From an uncultured Clostridium sp. (GTDB lineage Bacteria; Bacillota; Clostridia; Lachnospirales; Lachnospiraceae), in contig UQFC01000001.1 in the NCBI GenBank assembly GCA_900540335.1, positions 14,178 to 78,177 of the forward strand: 64,000 bases of DNA, written 5' to 3'. Positions 9,564 through 57,255 of this stretch are shown piece by piece. The translations under genes were made by a program, and so were the position numbers. Every line of letters starts with the position of its first letter. Within the stretch, counting starts at the first letter, position 1. The notes under the pieces were generated by a model. That model was not told the DNA's origin. It did no database searches and saw nothing but the letters and a program-made list of their open reading frames with translations.

Positions 9564-9757
9564 TCTTTATCCTTTCTCTCTTTTCTTGCATTTTCCCTGA
9601 TTCTGTTATATGATGGCTTTCAGTATCGGCAGCCATTCCAGCCGCCCTGAACCGGCAGCGCTGCCAGTATGGCTGTAACATTCAGAACTAAGCAGAGGCC
9701 CGGCTTCTTCGCCGTCCTGAATCGTTGCGTGATTAATCAGACACAAGGAGGAATACC

Positions 9758-10786
9758 ATGATTTACAGCTTCAATAATGATTACAGCGAAGGAGCCCACC
9801 CGCGGATTCTTCAGGCTATGATGGAAACCAACCTGGAGCAGAACAACGGCTACAGCCTGGATCTCCATACAGACCATGCAAAAGAGCTGATCCGCCGGGA
9901 AATCGGCAGAGAAGATGCTGATATTCATATTATCACCGGAGGAACCCAGACCAATCTTCTGGGCATTTCCTGCGCTCTGAAGCCCTATCAGGCTGTCATC
10001 TGTGCAGAAACCGGACACATCAATGTTCACGAAACCGGCGCCATCGAAGCCACAGGACACAAGGTTCTGGGACAGCCCTCCCCGGATGGCCTTATGACTC
10101 CCGCCCTGATCCAGAAGGCTCTGGACTGGCACACAGATGAACATATGGTGCAGCCGAAAATGGTCTATATTTCCAATGCCACCGAGGTAGGAACCCAGTA
10201 CACCAAGGCTCAGTTAGAGGAGCTTTCCGCCTTCTGCCGCCAGAAAGGACTCTACCTGTTTTTAGACGGAGCCAGACTGGGTTCTGCCCTGACCAGCTCT
10301 GCCTGCGATCTGACTCTGGCTGACATTGCCCGCCTGACCGATTTATTTTATATTGGCGGTACGAAAAACGGAGCCCTCTTCGGAGAAGCGCTTATCATTC
10401 TGAATCCCAATTTAAAGCAGGATTTCCGTTACCTTATCAAACAGAAAGGCGCCATGCTGGCAAAAGGATGGCTTCTGGGCATCCAGTTTGAAGAGCTGTT
10501 CCAGAATCATCTCTTCTATGACATGGCTTCCCATGCCAATGAAATGGCAGACAGACTCCGCCGCGGCATTGAAGCATGCGGATACTCCTTCCAGTGGGCA
10601 TCCACAACCAATCAGCTGTTTCCCATCCTTCCAAATCCGGTTATGGAGGCGCTTTCCAGAGATTTCCTTTTCTCTGTCCAGACCGTGATTGACGACACCC
10701 GCACCTGCATCCGCCTGGTAACCTCCTGGGCTACAAAGCCGGAAGCAGTTGACGCCTTTTTAAAGGCTCTTCAGGAGCTCTCCTGA
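9758..10786 (+). CDS. ltaE: Low-specificity L-threonine aldolase / beta-eliminating lyase family PLP enzyme
   Basis: The 342-aa ORF has the threonine aldolase fold (NDYSEGAHP, GGTQTN, YISNATEVG, GGTKNG with a Lys for PLP). Confidence 0.8.
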   Translation: MIYSFNNDYSEGAHPRILQAMMETNLEQNNGYSLDLHTDHAKELIRREIGREDADIHIITGGTQTNLLGISCALKPYQAVICAETGHINVHETGAIEATGHKVLGQPSPDGLMTPALIQKALDWHTDEHMVQPKMVYISNATEVGTQYTKAQLEELSAFCRQKGLYLFLDGARLGSALTSSACDLTLADIARLTDLFYIGGTKNGALFGEALIILNPNLKQDFRYLIKQKGAMLAKGWLLGIQFEELFQNHLFYDMASHANEMADRLRRGIEACGYSFQWASTTNQLFPILPNPVMEALSRDFLFSVQTVIDDTRTCIRLVTSWATKPEAVDAFLKALQELS

Positions 10787-13830: not shown

Positions 13831-15171
13831 TTATCTTATATCATACTGATCATTCTGGCTGTTATTGGCCTGTTCTGCTGAAATCTCCACATCCTTCCAT
13901 TTCCAGTCCTGTATTCCGGATAATCTTCCAAATTCCTTTGCCTGAATTTTCACATGCTCCAGCACCACATTCATCATCGGCTTCTCTGGAAAAGCATCAA
14001 CCTCAAAGGCCCTGGAAATCCCCTGATAATCCGGTTCATTCCATGCAGTAATGTTTCTGAAAATCATATTTTTCACCTGGGGAATTCCCTTTTCTGCCGG
14101 AATCACAGGCTCTGCCAGAATCTCCCAGTGACGCGGAATTTCCCCCTCATACGATTCCGGAATTCTGCAATAGCTGTAAGCCGGATGCCAGTTTAAACAC
14201 ATATTAAACGGATATTTTACATTAATCATTTCCAAATTTTCTACCAGAATATCCTCAATCAGACCTCCTCTCGTTTTTGCCGACTTAATACGAAAACCGC
14301 AATCTGTATTTTTATACCTGATATTCCTGATTGTAATATTTTTTATTCCTCCGGAAGTTTCACTTCCAAGTGTCACTCCGCAGCCTGTAAGAATCCGACA
14401 ATTCTGAATCACTACATTTTGACAGATTCTGTTGACACGGAGCCCATCTGCATCACGTCCCGATTTCACACAGATACTGTCATCATTGCAGGCAATTACG
14501 CAGTTCTCTACCAGAACCTTTTCACAGGAGTCAATATCAATTCCATCTGTGCTTGGTCCTTCATTATCGTAGATCGATACCCCCTCTACATGGACTTCTC
14601 TGGAATAACAGATATGAATATTCCAGAATCCGGAGCGGCGGCTTTCAAAATCTGCGAGTTCTATATTTTCACTGTTCATAACCACCAGATTTCTGGCTCT
14701 CCTGCAATCGTAATCCACGCACCATCTCAATCCCCGTGCATCATAATTCTTTCGCATTCCGCCAGTTCCGTCCTGACCCCAGTATTTATTCCACCAGTAA
14801 GGCCCCTGCCCGTCAATACAGCCATTCCCTGTTACTTTTACATGATGCTGCCCGATAATATTCAAAATTCCTACCGGCCACTCCATCTCTATTCCTGCCA
14901 CTCTGGTCGGAAGAATCGGGTAACAGGCTTCCTCTGTTGTTCCCAAAAGAACCGCCCCCTGTTCCATGCAAAACTCCAGATTACTCTTTAAAAACAGGGA
15001 GCCTGTTAAATATACTCCTTTTTCCAGAAGAACCGTCGCATGAGACTCTTCTGTCTCCGCGCCTTCCAAGCTTTCCGCTGCCTTATCAATCGCTCTCTGG
15101 ATTGCCTCTGTATCCAGAGTAACCCCATCTCCGGCAGCACCAAATTCCTTTGGATTAAAAATTTTATTCAT
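13831..15171 (-). CDS. Glycoside hydrolase family 28 (polygalacturonase/rhamnogalacturonase-type)
   Basis: It has the GH28 catalytic motifs (STDGIDID, CNDDSICVKSG, GCGVTLGSE, RIKS) and parallel beta-helix repeats. I placed the start at 15171 after an AGAGGAAAAG RBS. Confidence 0.8.
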   Translation of the reverse strand: MNKIFNPKEFGAAGDGVTLDTEAIQRAIDKAAESLEGAETEESHATVLLEKGVYLTGSLFLKSNLEFCMEQGAVLLGTTEEACYPILPTRVAGIEMEWPVGILNIIGQHHVKVTGNGCIDGQGPYWWNKYWGQDGTGGMRKNYDARGLRWCVDYDCRRARNLVVMNSENIELADFESRRSGFWNIHICYSREVHVEGVSIYDNEGPSTDGIDIDSCEKVLVENCVIACNDDSICVKSGRDADGLRVNRICQNVVIQNCRILTGCGVTLGSETSGGIKNITIRNIRYKNTDCGFRIKSAKTRGGLIEDILVENLEMINVKYPFNMCLNWHPAYSYCRIPESYEGEIPRHWEILAEPVIPAEKGIPQVKNMIFRNITAWNEPDYQGISRAFEVDAFPEKPMMNVVLEHVKIQAKEFGRLSGIQDWKWKDVEISAEQANNSQNDQYDIR

Positions 15172-30061: not shown

Positions 30062-30868
30062 CTATTCTGCCGTTTTCTCTGCAGCTGCCTTTTCAGCGGC
30101 TGCTTTTTTTGCTGCAGCTGCCTTTTCAGCGGCTGCTTTCTTTGCTGCCAGAGCCTCTTCTTCTTTCTTTCTGCGAATTTCTTCCAGAGCCTCATGGTTT
30201 GCCTGACATGCAGAGCCGCTGCAGGTTAAGCAGTTGCCGCCGCAGGCCAGCTTGGAAGGAGCCACAGAGCCGTTGGTAGCAGAGGGAGCCTTAAATTTGT
30301 TCTGAAGGGCAGTCAGGCCAGCCAGTACAAAGAATGCTCCGGGTGCCAGACCGAAAATAGCAATGCGGTAATTTTCCGGGATCAGCTCAATACCGAAGAT
30401 AGAACCGGAACCAAGGATCTCACGGAAAATAGCAATACAGGTCAGACCTACGGTAAATCCAAGGCCCATACCGATACCATCGAAAGCAGATTCCAGAGGA
30501 CCGTTCTTTGCTGCATATGCCTCGGCACGGCCAAGGATAATACAGTTTACTACGATCAGCGGAATGAAAATACCCAGTGACTCATACAGGCTGGGAATAA
30601 ATGCCTGCAGAAGCAGCTGTACGATAGTAACCAGAGAAGCAACAATTACAATATATGCCGGAATACGTACCCGATCCGGAATAATCTTCCGCAGTGCGGA
30701 AATAAACAGGTTAGAGAAAACCAGAACTGCCGTCGTGGACAGTCCCATGCCGACGCCGTTGATAGCAGTTGTGGTAACTGCCAGAGTCGGACACATACCA
30801 AGCATCAGGACGAAGGTCGGGTTTTCTTTAATAATACCGTTATATAAACGTTCTACACATTTATTCAT
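30062..30868 (-). CDS. rnfE: Rnf complex subunit E with an unusual C-terminal Cys-containing, Ala/Lys-rich tail
   Basis: The RnfE/NqrD core covers roughly 1-200. It is followed by GSVAPSKLACGGNCLTCSGSACQANH and then (AAKKAAAEK)n. The tail is encoded by a roughly 36-bp DNA tandem repeat at 30062-30180. Confidence 0.85.
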   Translation of the reverse strand: MNKCVERLYNGIIKENPTFVLMLGMCPTLAVTTTAINGVGMGLSTTAVLVFSNLFISALRKIIPDRVRIPAYIVIVASLVTIVQLLLQAFIPSLYESLGIFIPLIVVNCIILGRAEAYAAKNGPLESAFDGIGMGLGFTVGLTCIAIFREILGSGSIFGIELIPENYRIAIFGLAPGAFFVLAGLTALQNKFKAPSATNGSVAPSKLACGGNCLTCSGSACQANHEALEEIRRKKEEEALAAKKAAAEKAAAAKKAAAEKAAAEKTAE

Positions 30869-44970: not shown

Positions 44971-45456
44971 ATGAAAAAAATGATATTTCAGAATCTGTTC
45001 CGGCTTTCCGCCGCTGTCGTATGCACCCTGTCCCTGAGCATTTCCGCCTGGGCTTCCACCGAAACTTCTTCTATTGTTATATGTGGTTCAGAATCTTCTG
45101 AAGAAGAGGATGAAGTTATTTTAAGCGAAACTCCGGAAGATATTCAGGATACGGTGGGCGAATTTGTGTCTCTCGGCATGTTTACCACAACCGGTTACTG
45201 CAACTGCGAACAATGTTCCGGCGGCCACAGTCTCACCTATGCCGGCACAGTGCCCCGGGCAGAACACACACTTTCTGCTGATCTGAATCTGTTTCCTATT
45301 GGCACACAGCTTATGGTAGACGGGATTATCTACACAGTTGAAGATATGGGTTCCTCTGTAAACGGCAATATAATCGATATTTTTTACGACTGCCACCAGG
45401 ATGCCGAGGCCCACGGCATGCAGATTCAGGAGGTTTTTGCAATTCCTTCCTGCTGA
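44971..45456 (+). CDS. Secreted 3D-domain protein (MltA/RlpA-like cell-wall-binding/lytic domain)
   Basis: The 161-aa ORF has a signal peptide, an acidic linker, and a 3D domain (GxTASG-like core and DxGxxxxGNxIDIFxD). Upstream are TTGACA...TATATAAT promoter-like sequences. Confidence 0.75.
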   Translation: MKKMIFQNLFRLSAAVVCTLSLSISAWASTETSSIVICGSESSEEEDEVILSETPEDIQDTVGEFVSLGMFTTTGYCNCEQCSGGHSLTYAGTVPRAEHTLSADLNLFPIGTQLMVDGIIYTVEDMGSSVNGNIIDIFYDCHQDAEAHGMQIQEVFAIPSC

Positions 45457-45799
45457 AGAAAACTCTCAATCCAATTCCATACATACAAGATATAGTGCGA
45501 GCGGATACCATATATAGGTTTTCCGCTCCTTTTTTACGCATTTTGTTGACAAATGAAAAAAAATATGTAAAATAGGGACTTGTTGCTCATATATTACAAA
45601 TTTGTTACATATATTTAGATTGTATGAAACTTTTGTTGATTTTTTGTTTTGCAGCTATCTGCCGCAAAACCTCGTAGCAAATTCCGGTAACATTTGACCC
45701 TGTAAAGCTTCAGAAGCCAGACGCTTCTCACCCGCCTCAAACAGGCAGAACGATGCAGGATATCACTGTTCCGGTCTGAGCAGGAAAGGATTGATTATT

Positions 45800-46546
45800 A
45801 TGTTGAAAAACAACACGATTTTTGCAACACTTGGACTTGCCTTCTGTCTTCTCTTCGGAGGTGCTTTTACCGCCTACGGCAGCCAGCCTGCCAACGGCTT
45901 CTTTGACGCCTTCGAGGGAAATACGATTGTGGGATGGGGCTGGGATTCTTCCACTCCCAATACTGCAGTTCCGGTACATGTGACTGTAACCAACAAGGAA
46001 TCCGGCGAAGTAGTCGGTGATTTCAAGCCCACAGCCGGTACCTTCCGTCAGGACTTAAAAGAAAACGGAATCGGCAACGGAAACCACGGCTTCCGCATTC
46101 CCATGGACTGGGACAGCCTTCCCGACGGTTCCTATGAGATTCAGGGCTGGATTGAAGGCCAGGAGTTTGAAAACACCAAGACCTATGTAAAAGGCGAGGC
46201 TGCTCCGGCTGAGGAGACTGCTCCGGCAGCAGAAAAGCCCCAGCAGAATTCCGGAATGCGTTCTCTGGGCCTGTTCCGTACCACAGCCTACTGCCCCTGC
46301 TACAAATGCTCTGAAGGCTGGGGACGCCGCACCTCCAGCGGTGCCATTGCCCGCTCCGGTCATACCATCGCCGTAGATCCCCGGGTCATTCCCATGGGCT
46401 CCAAGGTCATGATTGGCGGTGTGATTTATACAGCAGAGGACCGGGGAGGCGGTGTCAAGGGAAATCACATTGATATCTTTTACGACACTCACGGTCAGAC
46501 CCGTCAGCACGGCTCCTTTATGCAGGAAGTATTCCTGGTACAGTAA
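45800..46546 (+). CDS. Secreted 3D-domain protein with an N-terminal Ig-like/carbohydrate-binding-like domain
   Basis: It has a signal peptide and a roughly 130-aa beta domain, and its C-terminal 3D domain is a paralog of the upstream gene (TTAYCPCYKCSEGWG...GNHIDIFYDTH). I placed the start at the ATG at 45800, which follows AGGAAAGGA. The ORF-track start at 45791 is a TTG. Confidence 0.75.
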   Translation: MLKNNTIFATLGLAFCLLFGGAFTAYGSQPANGFFDAFEGNTIVGWGWDSSTPNTAVPVHVTVTNKESGEVVGDFKPTAGTFRQDLKENGIGNGNHGFRIPMDWDSLPDGSYEIQGWIEGQEFENTKTYVKGEAAPAEETAPAAEKPQQNSGMRSLGLFRTTAYCPCYKCSEGWGRRTSSGAIARSGHTIAVDPRVIPMGSKVMIGGVIYTAEDRGGGVKGNHIDIFYDTHGQTRQHGSFMQEVFLVQ

Positions 46547-46769
46547 TCTGAAAATCAATAACAAATAGAAGAGAAAGTACCGCTGAATGGTCTGTTTCAT
46601 ACAGACTTCTCAGCGGTACTGTTTTGTTTGTAGTATCTGGAATGCTTTCATATCATCGAGCTCTTGCTTTTTCCCCCTGGTACAGGTCTGCTCCCTCCTA
46701 TGGCAGATATAAAAATTCAGAAACCTGTTCCCCCTTTTAAGTTTAGTCTAAAATTTCTTTCTCTGGAAT

Positions 46770-47179
46770 TGTGCAAAACCTGACTTTTCCTCTCATAATG
46801 CAAAAACTTGACTTCGGTTTGTGCAGAATCCGGCTTTTTCCTCTGAAAATGCAAAATCTTCGCCCCAGTTTGTGCAGAATCTGACCTTTTCCTCCGAAAA
46901 TGCAAAATCTTCGCCCCGGTTTGTGCAGAATCCGGCTTTTTCCTCTGAAAATGCAAAATCTTCGCCCCGGTTTATGCAGGATTCGGCTTTTTCCTTTGAA
47001 AATGCAAAATCTTCGCCTCGGTTTGTGCAGGATCCGGCTTTTTCCTTCAAAAATGCAAAATCTTGGCTTCGGTTTTTGCAGGATCCGGCTTTTTCCTCCA
47101 AAAATGCAAAATCTTCTTCCTGTTTTTTGCAGGATCCGGCTTTTTCCTTCGAAAATGCAAAATCCCCACAGAGGTCCCT
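46770..47179. repeat. Eight copies of a degenerate 51-bp tandem direct repeat (consensus GTGCAGAATCCGGCTTTTTCCTCTGAAAATGCAAAATCTTCGCCCCGGTTT)
   Basis: The GTGCAG/TTGCAGG anchor recurs at 46821, 46872, 46923, 46974, 47025, 47077 and 47128, plus a degenerate copy at about 46770. Each unit contains two related half-units, TGCAGAATC and TGCAAAATC. All six frames are 'open' only because 51 is a multiple of 3. Confidence 0.85.
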
Positions 47180-47413
47180 ACAGAAATAGGCTGTATATAA
47201 ATAATTCAGCCATGTATCTTCTTGCCTGCTCACAGTGAACAAGACGCATCGGATGTCCGCTCTATGAAAATCCAGGCAGAAAACCTCTTATAAAAATAGT
47301 CCTTCAATCCACAAAATTCCGCCTGGAAGCTTTCACTAATGGCGAAAAAGAATATACCTTGGCACATCCTCGCAGAGCATTTTTGTGTCACAGAATGAAC
47401 GTTCTTATGATAC

Positions 47414-47455
47414 AAAAAAGCCAGACCAGGTCCATGAAAGAACCTGTGGTCTGAC
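47414..47455 (-). terminator. Intrinsic terminator about 240 nt downstream of argH
   Basis: On the minus strand, CAGACCACAGGT-loop-ACCTGGTCTGGC is followed by TTTTTTGT. Confidence 0.55.
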
Positions 47456-47549
47456 TTCTGTTTCTTATCTTTTCTTATTTTTAAGCTTTTCTCAACAGAG
47501 TACGTATTCTCTCTCCGGTATTCTGCATCCAGTAAACCGCCTCGTAGAT

Positions 47550-47668
47550 TCCGCTAAACTTTCACGGAGCTTCCGCTAAACCTCCACTGAACTTCCACTG
47601 AACTTCCACTAAGCTTTCATAGGGTTTCCTCTAATCTTCCATTAAACTTCCATAAAGCCTCCGCTTCC
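47550..47668. repeat. About ten copies of an 11-bp periodic degenerate repeat ((A)ACTTCCACTGA-like)
   Basis: The run reads CCGCTAAACTT / CCGCTAAACCT / CCACTGAACTT / CCACTGAACTT / CCACTAAGCTT / TCATAGGGTTT / CCTCTAATCTT / CCATTAAACTT / CCATAAAGCCT / CCGCTTCCC. It lies between the argH stop and its terminator. Confidence 0.75.
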
Positions 47669-47689
47669 CATTCTATGTCTGTTTTTGTT

Positions 47690-56307: not shown

Positions 56308-56435
56308 GAAAATCAAGGTTTCCTCCACTTACCGGGCCTGAATTTCAAGGCTTCCTCCACACACCGATCCTGAATTTCAAGGCTGTCTCCACACACTGTC
56401 CCTGTATTTCAAGGCTGTCTCCACACACTGTCCCT
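56308..56435. repeat. Four tandem 32-bp direct repeats (GAATTTCAAGGCTGTCTCCACACACTGTCCCT consensus) in the dctPQM upstream region
   Basis: R1 is 56308-56339, R2 56340-56371, R3 56372-56403 and R4 56404-56435. R3 and R4 are 31/32 identical. R4 overlaps the last codons of the AraC-type response regulator. Confidence 0.85.
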
Positions 56436-57255
56436 GTACTCGGAAGGATTCATTCCCGTAATCCGTTTAAATACCTTGGCAAAATAATTTGCATCATAAT
56501 ACCCTACCAGCATACTGACCTCCCTGACACTGACACTCTTTTCCTGAAGAAGTCTCCTTGCCTCCTGAATCCGGAAACCAGTCAGATAGGCTGTAAAATT
56601 CTGGTCAAAACACTGCTTAAACAGCTTGCAGAAATAGGCATCGGAGTAATTCATCATCCGGGCCGCATCCTGCATGGAAATATCTCTCATATAATTTTTC
56701 CGGATATACCGCCGGATCTTCTCCGCCGCCTGTCCCAGACGATCCGGCTCCTCCATATCCGCCTCATCCTTAAACTCCTCTCCCTCAATCGCCTCCTGCC
56801 GGGACTCCCCGGCGCTTGTGTCCGTCCTGTTCAGCTCCTCAAACTGCCTTCTTCTCCGGAGTCGCCGCATGGCCTCCTCCATCACAGCAGTCAGCTCCTC
56901 CTCCTCGCATGGCTTCAGCAGATAATCCAGGGCATGAATGGCAATGGCCCGCTTGGCATAGGAAAATTCATCATAAGCAGTCAGGAAAATAATCTCTCAG
57001 CCCTCGTCCAGCCTTCGAATCTGCTCTGCCGCCTCCACACCGTTCATCTCCGGCATGGAGATGTCCATAATCACAATCTGGCAGCCCTCCTGAGAACAGA
57101 GCTTAATGGCTTCTGTCCCGTCCACGGCCTGCAAAATCACCAGACTTTCCCCGAACCGCTTCAAAAGCCTTCTGGCAAGCGCCATTCGCTCAATCTGCTC
57201 ATCATCAGCCAGCAGCACCTTGTAACTCTCTTTTTTATCATTTTCCTGATTCACT
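56409..57255 (-). pseudogene. YesN-like response regulator (CheY receiver + AraC HTH) interrupted by a single in-frame TGA
   Basis: The receiver ORF (56997-57311) and the AraC-HTH ORF (56409-56885) are in the same frame. They are separated only by a TGA at 56997-56999, inside the conserved ...RRLDEG*EIIFLTAYDEFSYA... block. The start is the GTG at 57253-57255, which follows GGAGGA and overlaps the histidine kinase stop. Confidence 0.75.

Follow-up and report, generated by a model that had tools for sequence, protein, structure and literature searches.

A noncoding, strain-variable 51-bp minisatellite with conserved TGCA boxes between a 3D-domain gene and argH in an uncultured Clostridium

Why should a bacterium carry a tandem array of 51-bp repeats in the middle of a large gap between two genes? 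The question is raised by a 64,000-nucleotide stretch of DNA from an uncultured Clostridium sp. (contig UQFC01000001.1), referred to here as the window. In it, a 3D-domain gene on the plus strand and argH on the minus strand converge on a gap of 1,143 bp (46547-47689). An earlier reading of the letters alone (the sequence-only reading) had placed the repeat in this gap, and both the coordinates of the gap and the identities it gave to the two neighbors are borne out, the former gene encoding PF06725 and the latter, an argininosuccinate lyase, PF00206 plus PF14698. It had offered three explanations, namely, an array of binding sites for a protein, a variable-number tandem repeat (VNTR), or a structured noncoding RNA. 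The gene order of the neighborhood is hrcA-grpE-dnaK, two 3D-domain genes, argH, YfhO, and GtrA. The two PF06725 genes lie in tandem (44971-45456, 161 amino acids [aa], and 45791-46546, 251 aa), and relatives keep the pair, also beside hrcA-grpE-dnaK.

How firm is the repeat itself? Tandem Repeats Finder reports it at 46785-47164 (7.5 copies, 88% matches, 0% indels, score 513), a repeat search of the window finds seven copies in register at 51-bp steps, and a search with a profile of the unit gives eight consecutive hits from 46772 to 47164. The array is confirmed as genuine, with a period of 51 bp and about 7.7 units at 46772-47164, no strand being assigned to it. It opens with a degenerate unit (46772-46821), continues with six full units (starting at 46822, 46873, 46924, 46975, 47026, and 47077), and closes with a unit truncated to 37 nucleotides (nt) (47128-47164). 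The original description, eight copies at 46770-47179, was therefore correct as to the array and its period but overstated the end and the number of units.

To briefly describe the unit, it consists of Box A, (A/T)TTKTGCAGRAT, followed by a T5CC tract, Box B, AAAATGCAMAATC, and a C-rich linker of 10 to 11 bp. The core TGCARAATC occurs 11 times in the gap and 13 times in the whole window, against an expectation of 2.46, and 0 of 100 shuffles contained 13 or more. Once the variants TGCAGGATC and TGCAAAAMC are included, the array holds about 16 cores, as first proposed, but they are not uniformly 25 bp apart: intervals of 28 and 23 bp alternate. The proposal that the unit is made of two direct half-units was likewise incomplete: a 12-bp palindrome makes up Box A, which together with Box B forms an inverted repeat. 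No sigma-70 promoters or intrinsic terminators are predicted within the array.

Regular repeat spacing and partial dyad symmetry could bring to mind a degenerate or atypical CRISPR array, which the sequence-only reading had already dismissed. That judgment stands. The whole 51-bp unit repeats, including the 10-nt linker, and the would-be spacers of 10 nt recur and are mutually related within the array, none being unique. In addition, a total period of 51 bp is too short, and no cas-type gene is found among the genes called within 6 kb on each side. A CRISPR origin can be given next to no credence.

Could the array encode a protein? Its period is exactly 17 codons, and a coding or recently decayed coding repeat would take the form of a basic minus-strand repeat of 17 aa, FCIFRGKSRILHKPGRR. 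Stops interrupt five of the six frames in some lineage, the plus frame carrying TGA, but this one minus frame is open through every array of the two lineages described below, and in a more distant array (L057) it is a TTG-started open reading frame (ORF) of 71 aa. Among 35 distinct units, 13 of the 17 columns in one codon phase are variable, compared with 6 of 17 and 7 of 17 in the others, and the variable phase is the wobble position of the minus frame. Synonymous variants show a modest excess, with p = 0.015 for that frame and p = 0.008 for one of the plus frames, though these values are uncorrected and keep no margin after correction for the six frames tested. The open frame has no ATG, GTG, or TTG start codon in lineages 1 and 2, where a conserved stop lies immediately upstream, and its translation has no homologues among 5.8 billion protein clusters. 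None of the four ORFs called in the array exceeds the threshold for a Pfam family. The 149-aa ORF has one match in the same 5.8 billion clusters, which is the same locus in lineage 2. Arguing strongly against any frame are the related arrays of groups B and C (described below), in which 50-nt units and a truncated unit would break it. One detail of the original description needs amending: the array ORFs were said to lack both an ATG and a ribosome-binding site (RBS), but the ORF at 46900-47238 does begin with ATG. It has no purine-rich RBS, however, and its frame contains TGA stops in other strains. The period-3 signal in the substitutions is unexplained and is probably due to chance, and a coding origin is very improbable. 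The array is not part of a conserved coding sequence, and its ORFs are, as was supposed, by-products of a period divisible by three, given the stops, the missing starts, and the lack of homologues and Pfam families.

Is the array an old feature of this locus? In the closest other species, the 3D protein is about 70% identical and the gene order is unchanged, but the 3D-argH gap measures only 96 to 131 bp and contains a single hairpin; the relatives found through the 3D protein are labelled Lachnospiraceae. The gap in the window is thus indeed unusually large, as had been claimed, and since the relatives have so little DNA at this position, about 1 kb must be an addition in the window's species. 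The array-bearing DNA is lineage specific and dispensable.

The added DNA has clear boundaries. On the left is the terminator hairpin of the 3D-domain gene (46576-46620, plus strand), an inverted repeat with 20-nt arms directly 3' of the gene, which has a folding energy of -30.5 kcal/mol (z = -6.98) and is followed by the U-rich UGUUUUGUUUGU. On the right is the terminator hairpin of argH (47420-47455, minus strand), which was recognized by folding against shuffles and begins 235 bp past the argH stop. On the minus strand, it reaches -26.7 kcal/mol (z = -5.12) and is followed by a U6 tail, UUUUUUGU, while the plus strand is weaker (-16.5 kcal/mol, z = -2.29). The 51-bp array sits within the 800 bp that separate these two terminators. 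To its left is a flank (46621-46771) that is about 95% identical between lineages in the alignment with contig L027 and is missing in relatives. To its right come a variable module (47165-47296), in place of which L027 carries unrelated sequence, and a conserved right flank (47297-47419); none of these three segments is assigned a strand. Three contigs, L029, L034, and L056, all of lineage 2 and all with 3-unit arrays, carry an inserted IS605-family tnpB at a distance of about 120 bp on the right side of the array. The element in L034 (2226-3329) encodes HTH_OrfB_IS605, OrfB_IS605, and Cas12f1-like TNB domains. Its insertion point corresponds to about 47296 in the window, the very breakpoint at which L027 turns to unrelated sequence.

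The gap holds other items of note. The conserved right flank includes a 40-nt intergenic motif, AAAAAGAATATACCTTGGCACATCCTCGCAGAGCATTTTTG (47345-47384), that is 92.5% identical to intergenic DNA of two uncultured human-gut phage contigs, MT835525.1 and MT837576.1. In the window and the phages alike, a hairpin with a T-run follows within about 40 to 80 nt. The motif is kept in lineage 2 and includes TGGCAC-N5-CGCA, similar to a sigma-54 -24/-12 promoter. It may represent a small transcription unit common to host and phage. Nearer argH is a separate array with an 11-bp period (47549-47656; Tandem Repeats Finder) of about 10 copies, reading TTCCACTAAAC on the plus strand and GTTTAGTGGAA on the argH strand. 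It is not of the 51-bp family. Its plus strand is C rich and G poor (C 34, G 11), L008 has one extra unit, and lineage 2 differs by a block of 9 to 10 bp. Because it lies between the argH stop and the argH terminator, it would belong to the argH 3' untranslated region, where it could act as a rut-like site against antisense transcription or as an array of sites for an RNA-binding protein. Two further repeats lie elsewhere in the window. One (56313-56436) comprises about 4 copies of the 32-bp CCTGAATTTCAAGGCTGTCTCCACACACTGTC with 88 to 91% matches and is seemingly intergenic or at the edge of a mechanically called minus-strand ORF (56409-56885). The other (30067-30148) has 2.1 copies of a 33-bp unit at 97% identity (Tandem Repeats Finder score 133), with overlapping 15- and 18-bp periodicities.

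Does the number of 51-bp units differ among strains? A comparison of array lengths, a check that the sequence-only reading had pointed to, gives a clear answer. Ten human-gut metagenome contigs with an identical 3D protein have gaps of 899 to 1,243 bp, and the units per array number 3, 5, 6, 6, 8, 8, 8, and 8, with at least 9 where runs of N interrupt the array. In a second lineage (lineage 2), with flanks about 91% identical, the counts are 2, 3, 3, 3, 3, 5, 9, 9, and at least 7. The differences in length are always whole units, over a total range of 2 to 9 or more. Across strains, the two terminal units do not change, and the internal units form differing mosaics. Gain and loss of whole units, together with mosaics between fixed ends, are the signature of replication slippage or of unequal recombination between units. 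Of course, these counts come from short-read metagenome assemblies, which can collapse 51-bp repeats, and two scaffolds have N gaps inside the array; nevertheless, to judge by the distinct orders of the units, most of the copy-number differences are probably real. In L027, which belongs to lineage 2, the array has only about 1.7 units, suggesting growth out of a short proto-repeat.

Of the three original explanations, that of a VNTR is therefore borne out by whole-unit differences among contigs with conserved flanks. The units stand head to tail, as in bacterial VNTRs and minisatellites, with a period of 51 bp, 7.5 copies, and no indels, and their number varies in short-read assemblies from 3 to at least 9 between identical flanks and from 2 to 9 where the flanks are about 91% identical. 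The 51-bp array is a noncoding, strain-variable minisatellite. This has practical consequences: the locus is a ready-made VNTR marker for strain typing in an abundant human-gut species, and it is known to be troublesome for short-read assembly. The flanking 3D protein was found in at least 199 contigs, and in 401 blocks of the collection searched.

Does the unit have relatives at other loci, a possibility also raised at the outset? A strict pattern of the unit, run against 185,579 species-representative genomes, gave 8 isolated chance hits and no arrays, so that the wider distribution of the family is poorly sampled. A pattern search of metagenome contigs, followed by the unit profile, revealed diverged arrays of 50- to 51-bp units in four other genomic contexts. 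Group B, on contig L039, has a sortase gene on one side and an amino-acid-type ABC transporter operon on the other. Group E is a second array on that contig, 4 kb away and beyond the ABC operon. Group C adjoins the 3' end of a 1,492-aa ORF, and group D (L057) lies between a 213-aa ORF and a tripartite-transporter-like operon. The two L039 arrays (9602-9893 and 14009-14425) are of different subtypes but share one orientation, and they bracket a 4-kb operon encoding SBP_bac_3, a permease, an ATPase, and a 385-aa ORF. The second of them has a super-period of 153 bp, or 3 units. Copy number varies within groups B and C as well. Units of the window type form arrays only at the single 3D/argH locus among the metagenome contigs sampled. 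By the resemblance of their units, the window array is shown to be a member of a small family of 50- to 51-bp arrays in related gut Clostridia. Limited literature searches found no description of such a family, which is apparently undescribed.

How might the family have reached five contexts? The flanks share no similarity beyond 21 nt common to groups C and D; therefore, no larger element moves with the arrays. No gene is common to the five contexts, whether transposase, recombinase, or any other. Viral contigs yielded no array by the strict pattern, by a generalized two-box pattern, or by the profile screen, and the array locus has no similarity to plasmids. A phage or plasmid origin was rejected on these grounds, the only phage match being the unrelated 40-nt motif in the flank. 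A dispersed mobile element was rejected as well, given only the isolated chance hits among the species representatives.

With coding set aside, could the array work as RNA, as the third of the original explanations had it? Rfam at gathering scores has no match in the whole 64 kb, and its E-value mode adds nothing but irrelevant families, far under their thresholds. When folded, the array is no more stable than dinucleotide shuffles, whether on the plus strand (z = +0.30) or on the minus strand (z = +1.81). The only plausible stem, between Box B and the next Box A, is mismatched at pair 5 in 25 of 44 junctions, and the sole informative stem position is unpaired as A×G in 17, C×T in 6, and A×A in 3, compared with paired C-G in 17 and A-T in 2. 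Across 44 to 45 distinct junctions, its covariation score (0.008) falls below the mean for shuffled data (0.021) and is equalled or exceeded in 491 of the 500 shuffles. A structured noncoding RNA is not supported: Rfam, folding, and covariation all speak against it.

A related idea deserves separate treatment, that of a REP-like hairpin array that would work at the RNA level, as back-up terminators, 3'-end stabilizers, or an insulator downstream of a gene. The reverse complement of the unit does read as a stem (Box A' and Box B') with a loop, which is the variable portion of the unit, and a U-tract. Moreover, each of the five contexts has a co-oriented gene whose 3' end precedes the reverse-complemented array. 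Single units also fold well in some members, reaching -15.9 kcal/mol (z = -4.7) in L057, where the reverse strand reaches -12.9 kcal/mol and is followed by UUUUC, and -8.9 kcal/mol (z = -3.3) in group B. In the window, however, the unit hairpin is weak (-5.6 kcal/mol, z = -1.05, on the plus strand and -2.7 kcal/mol, z = +1.35, on the minus strand). The hairpin potential is decayed in this lineage. As mentioned, the entire array folds no better than shuffles, and its stem lacks covariation, with mismatches outnumbering pairs at the informative position; in addition, the array sits behind an argH terminator that is already strong. Behind the orientation rule stand five contexts, two of which share a contig, so that its significance is only about p = 0.06. 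Taken on both sides, a hairpin function of this kind appears distinctly unlikely.

What, then, do these arrays have in common? When one representative unit per group is aligned, 22 columns are invariant, and most of them fall in two boxes: Box A (TTG plus TGCAG.A, i.e., TTGTGCAG.A) and Box B (AAA.TGCA.AATC). The T-tract is nearly invariant, whereas almost nothing of the linker (columns 38 to 48, the 10 to 11 bp after Box B) is still shared between groups. The TGCA-to-TGCA distances of 28 and 23 bp are identical in all of them. The boxes can be reduced to a half-site, TGCAMAAW, present as a palindrome in Box A (ATTnTGCAnAAT) and as one inverted half-site in Box B. Identical boxes beside diverged linkers, across unrelated loci and species, point to a sequence-specific constraint. 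The arms of the dyad match the degenerate consensus independently, without compensating for each other, which is the behavior of protein half-sites and not of stems. Judged by this pattern of conservation, the boxes are most likely recognized by a sequence-specific DNA-binding protein.

The main competing explanation is that the array is a purely neutral or selfish minisatellite that has no cellular partner or function, that persists because intergenic DNA of this kind tolerates insertions, and whose boxes are conserved through recent spread or through a need in amplification. Several of the findings above suit it. The array DNA is lineage specific and dispensable, the gap is rich in indels and has accepted an IS605 tnpB in some strains, the copy number, 2 to 9 or more, shows no conserved optimum, the hairpin potential has decayed in the window's lineage, and no adjacent gene is available for regulation. 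Box conservation could also stem from a mechanistic need, such as that of a mobilizing enzyme, or from a relatively recent spread, and not from a cellular function. Yet linkers that have diverged almost completely beside boxes that are identical would not be expected under pure neutrality since a common ancestor, and the contexts share no transposase or recombinase and have no link to viral contigs or plasmids. Pure neutrality is a tentative account, possible but on the improbable side. The reading preferred here, held with about even confidence, is that of a noncoding minisatellite (VNTR) belonging to a family with conserved boxes, in which the boxes are putative sites for a DNA-binding protein.

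How would such an array work? On this preferred reading of the boxes as protein sites, a trans-acting, sequence-specific DNA-binding protein, probably a dimer, would recognize the TGCAMAAW boxes. This would turn every array into a multi-site platform, with a valency that follows its copy number. As to the array in the window, the neighboring genes converge and are already terminated, so no target in cis is seen and a local cis-regulatory role is unlikely. A local function of this array is doubtful; it would be neutral or would act only by titrating its binding partner. Against this reading, no binding protein was identified for the boxes, and no gene recurs across the five contexts. Solitary Box A sites in the 64-kb window amount to one hit outside the array, which is within chance and gives no sign of a regulon.

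Two known kinds of site were compared with the unit by eye and rejected. A sigma-54 promoter in each reverse-complement unit would fit the GG-N10-GC of groups A, B, and D; group E and some of group C, however, depart from this spacing by one or more. A likeness to the CodY box or the ARG box fails because the central positions vary between units; argH, moreover, is convergent, and the array is not upstream of it.

A bolder version of the preferred reading can be spelled out, though it is unlikely to be correct. Gut Lachnospiraceae-like Clostridia may carry undescribed chromosomal multi-site platforms, in which a dedicated protein would read TGCAMAAW and the number of units would set the dose. 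In the members with an intact palindrome, recognition might instead be by the transcription or RNA-decay machinery. If true, such platforms would be a bacterial counterpart of functional satellite or decoy arrays, or else a tandem terminator or insulator module placed after genes. More generally, if the TGCA boxes are binding sites, they would define a new DNA-binding specificity in gut Clostridia and illustrate how site arrays on a bacterial chromosome can be tuned by copy number. If they are not, the array would be ordinary filler DNA driven by slippage.

How does the array compare with systems that are already known? The MIRU-type VNTR loci of Mycobacterium tuberculosis are intergenic minisatellites with units of about 40 to 100 bp. 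They number dozens of loci per genome, lie between co-directional operon genes, and often contain short ORFs that overlap the neighboring stop and start codons. The array resembles them in its unit of about 51 bp, its intergenic position, its whole-unit differences between strains, and the presence of related units at several loci. Unlike MIRUs, the window unit is found at a single locus per genome as sampled, is flanked by convergent terminators, and offers no usable ORF.

A second comparison is with the REP and BIME elements of enterobacteria. REPs are short, imperfect, extragenic palindromes that occur in clusters, as a rule downstream of genes, and that host proteins bind; BIMEs combine palindromes of alternating orientation with specific linkers at hundreds of loci. 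The present family resembles them in its extragenic location and, as far as L057 and group B go, where the unit hairpins are stable, in a palindromic character. It differs in that its units are strictly direct, with a constant 51-bp period, at few loci as sampled, and in that the palindrome has decayed in the window.

Iteron and centromere-like arrays of plasmids and phages (Rep iterons and parC/tubC-type sites) consist of direct protein-recognition boxes at fixed spacing, the usual period being 11 to 22 bp. Direct boxes at fixed spacing also make up the 51-bp array, and 51 bp is close to five helical turns. In contrast to those arrays, it has no adjacent rep or par gene, no plasmid similarity, no presence in viral contigs, and a much longer period.

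Finally, there is the concept of decoy sites that titrate a transcription factor, as discussed in PMC8599769. Many copies without an adjacent target could buffer the free regulator, and copy number would tune the effect. The likeness to decoy sites is purely conceptual, with no candidate factor and no solitary operator-like sites seen in the window. The array qualifies as a bacterial VNTR, and it is a new member of the known bacterial intergenic repeat families.
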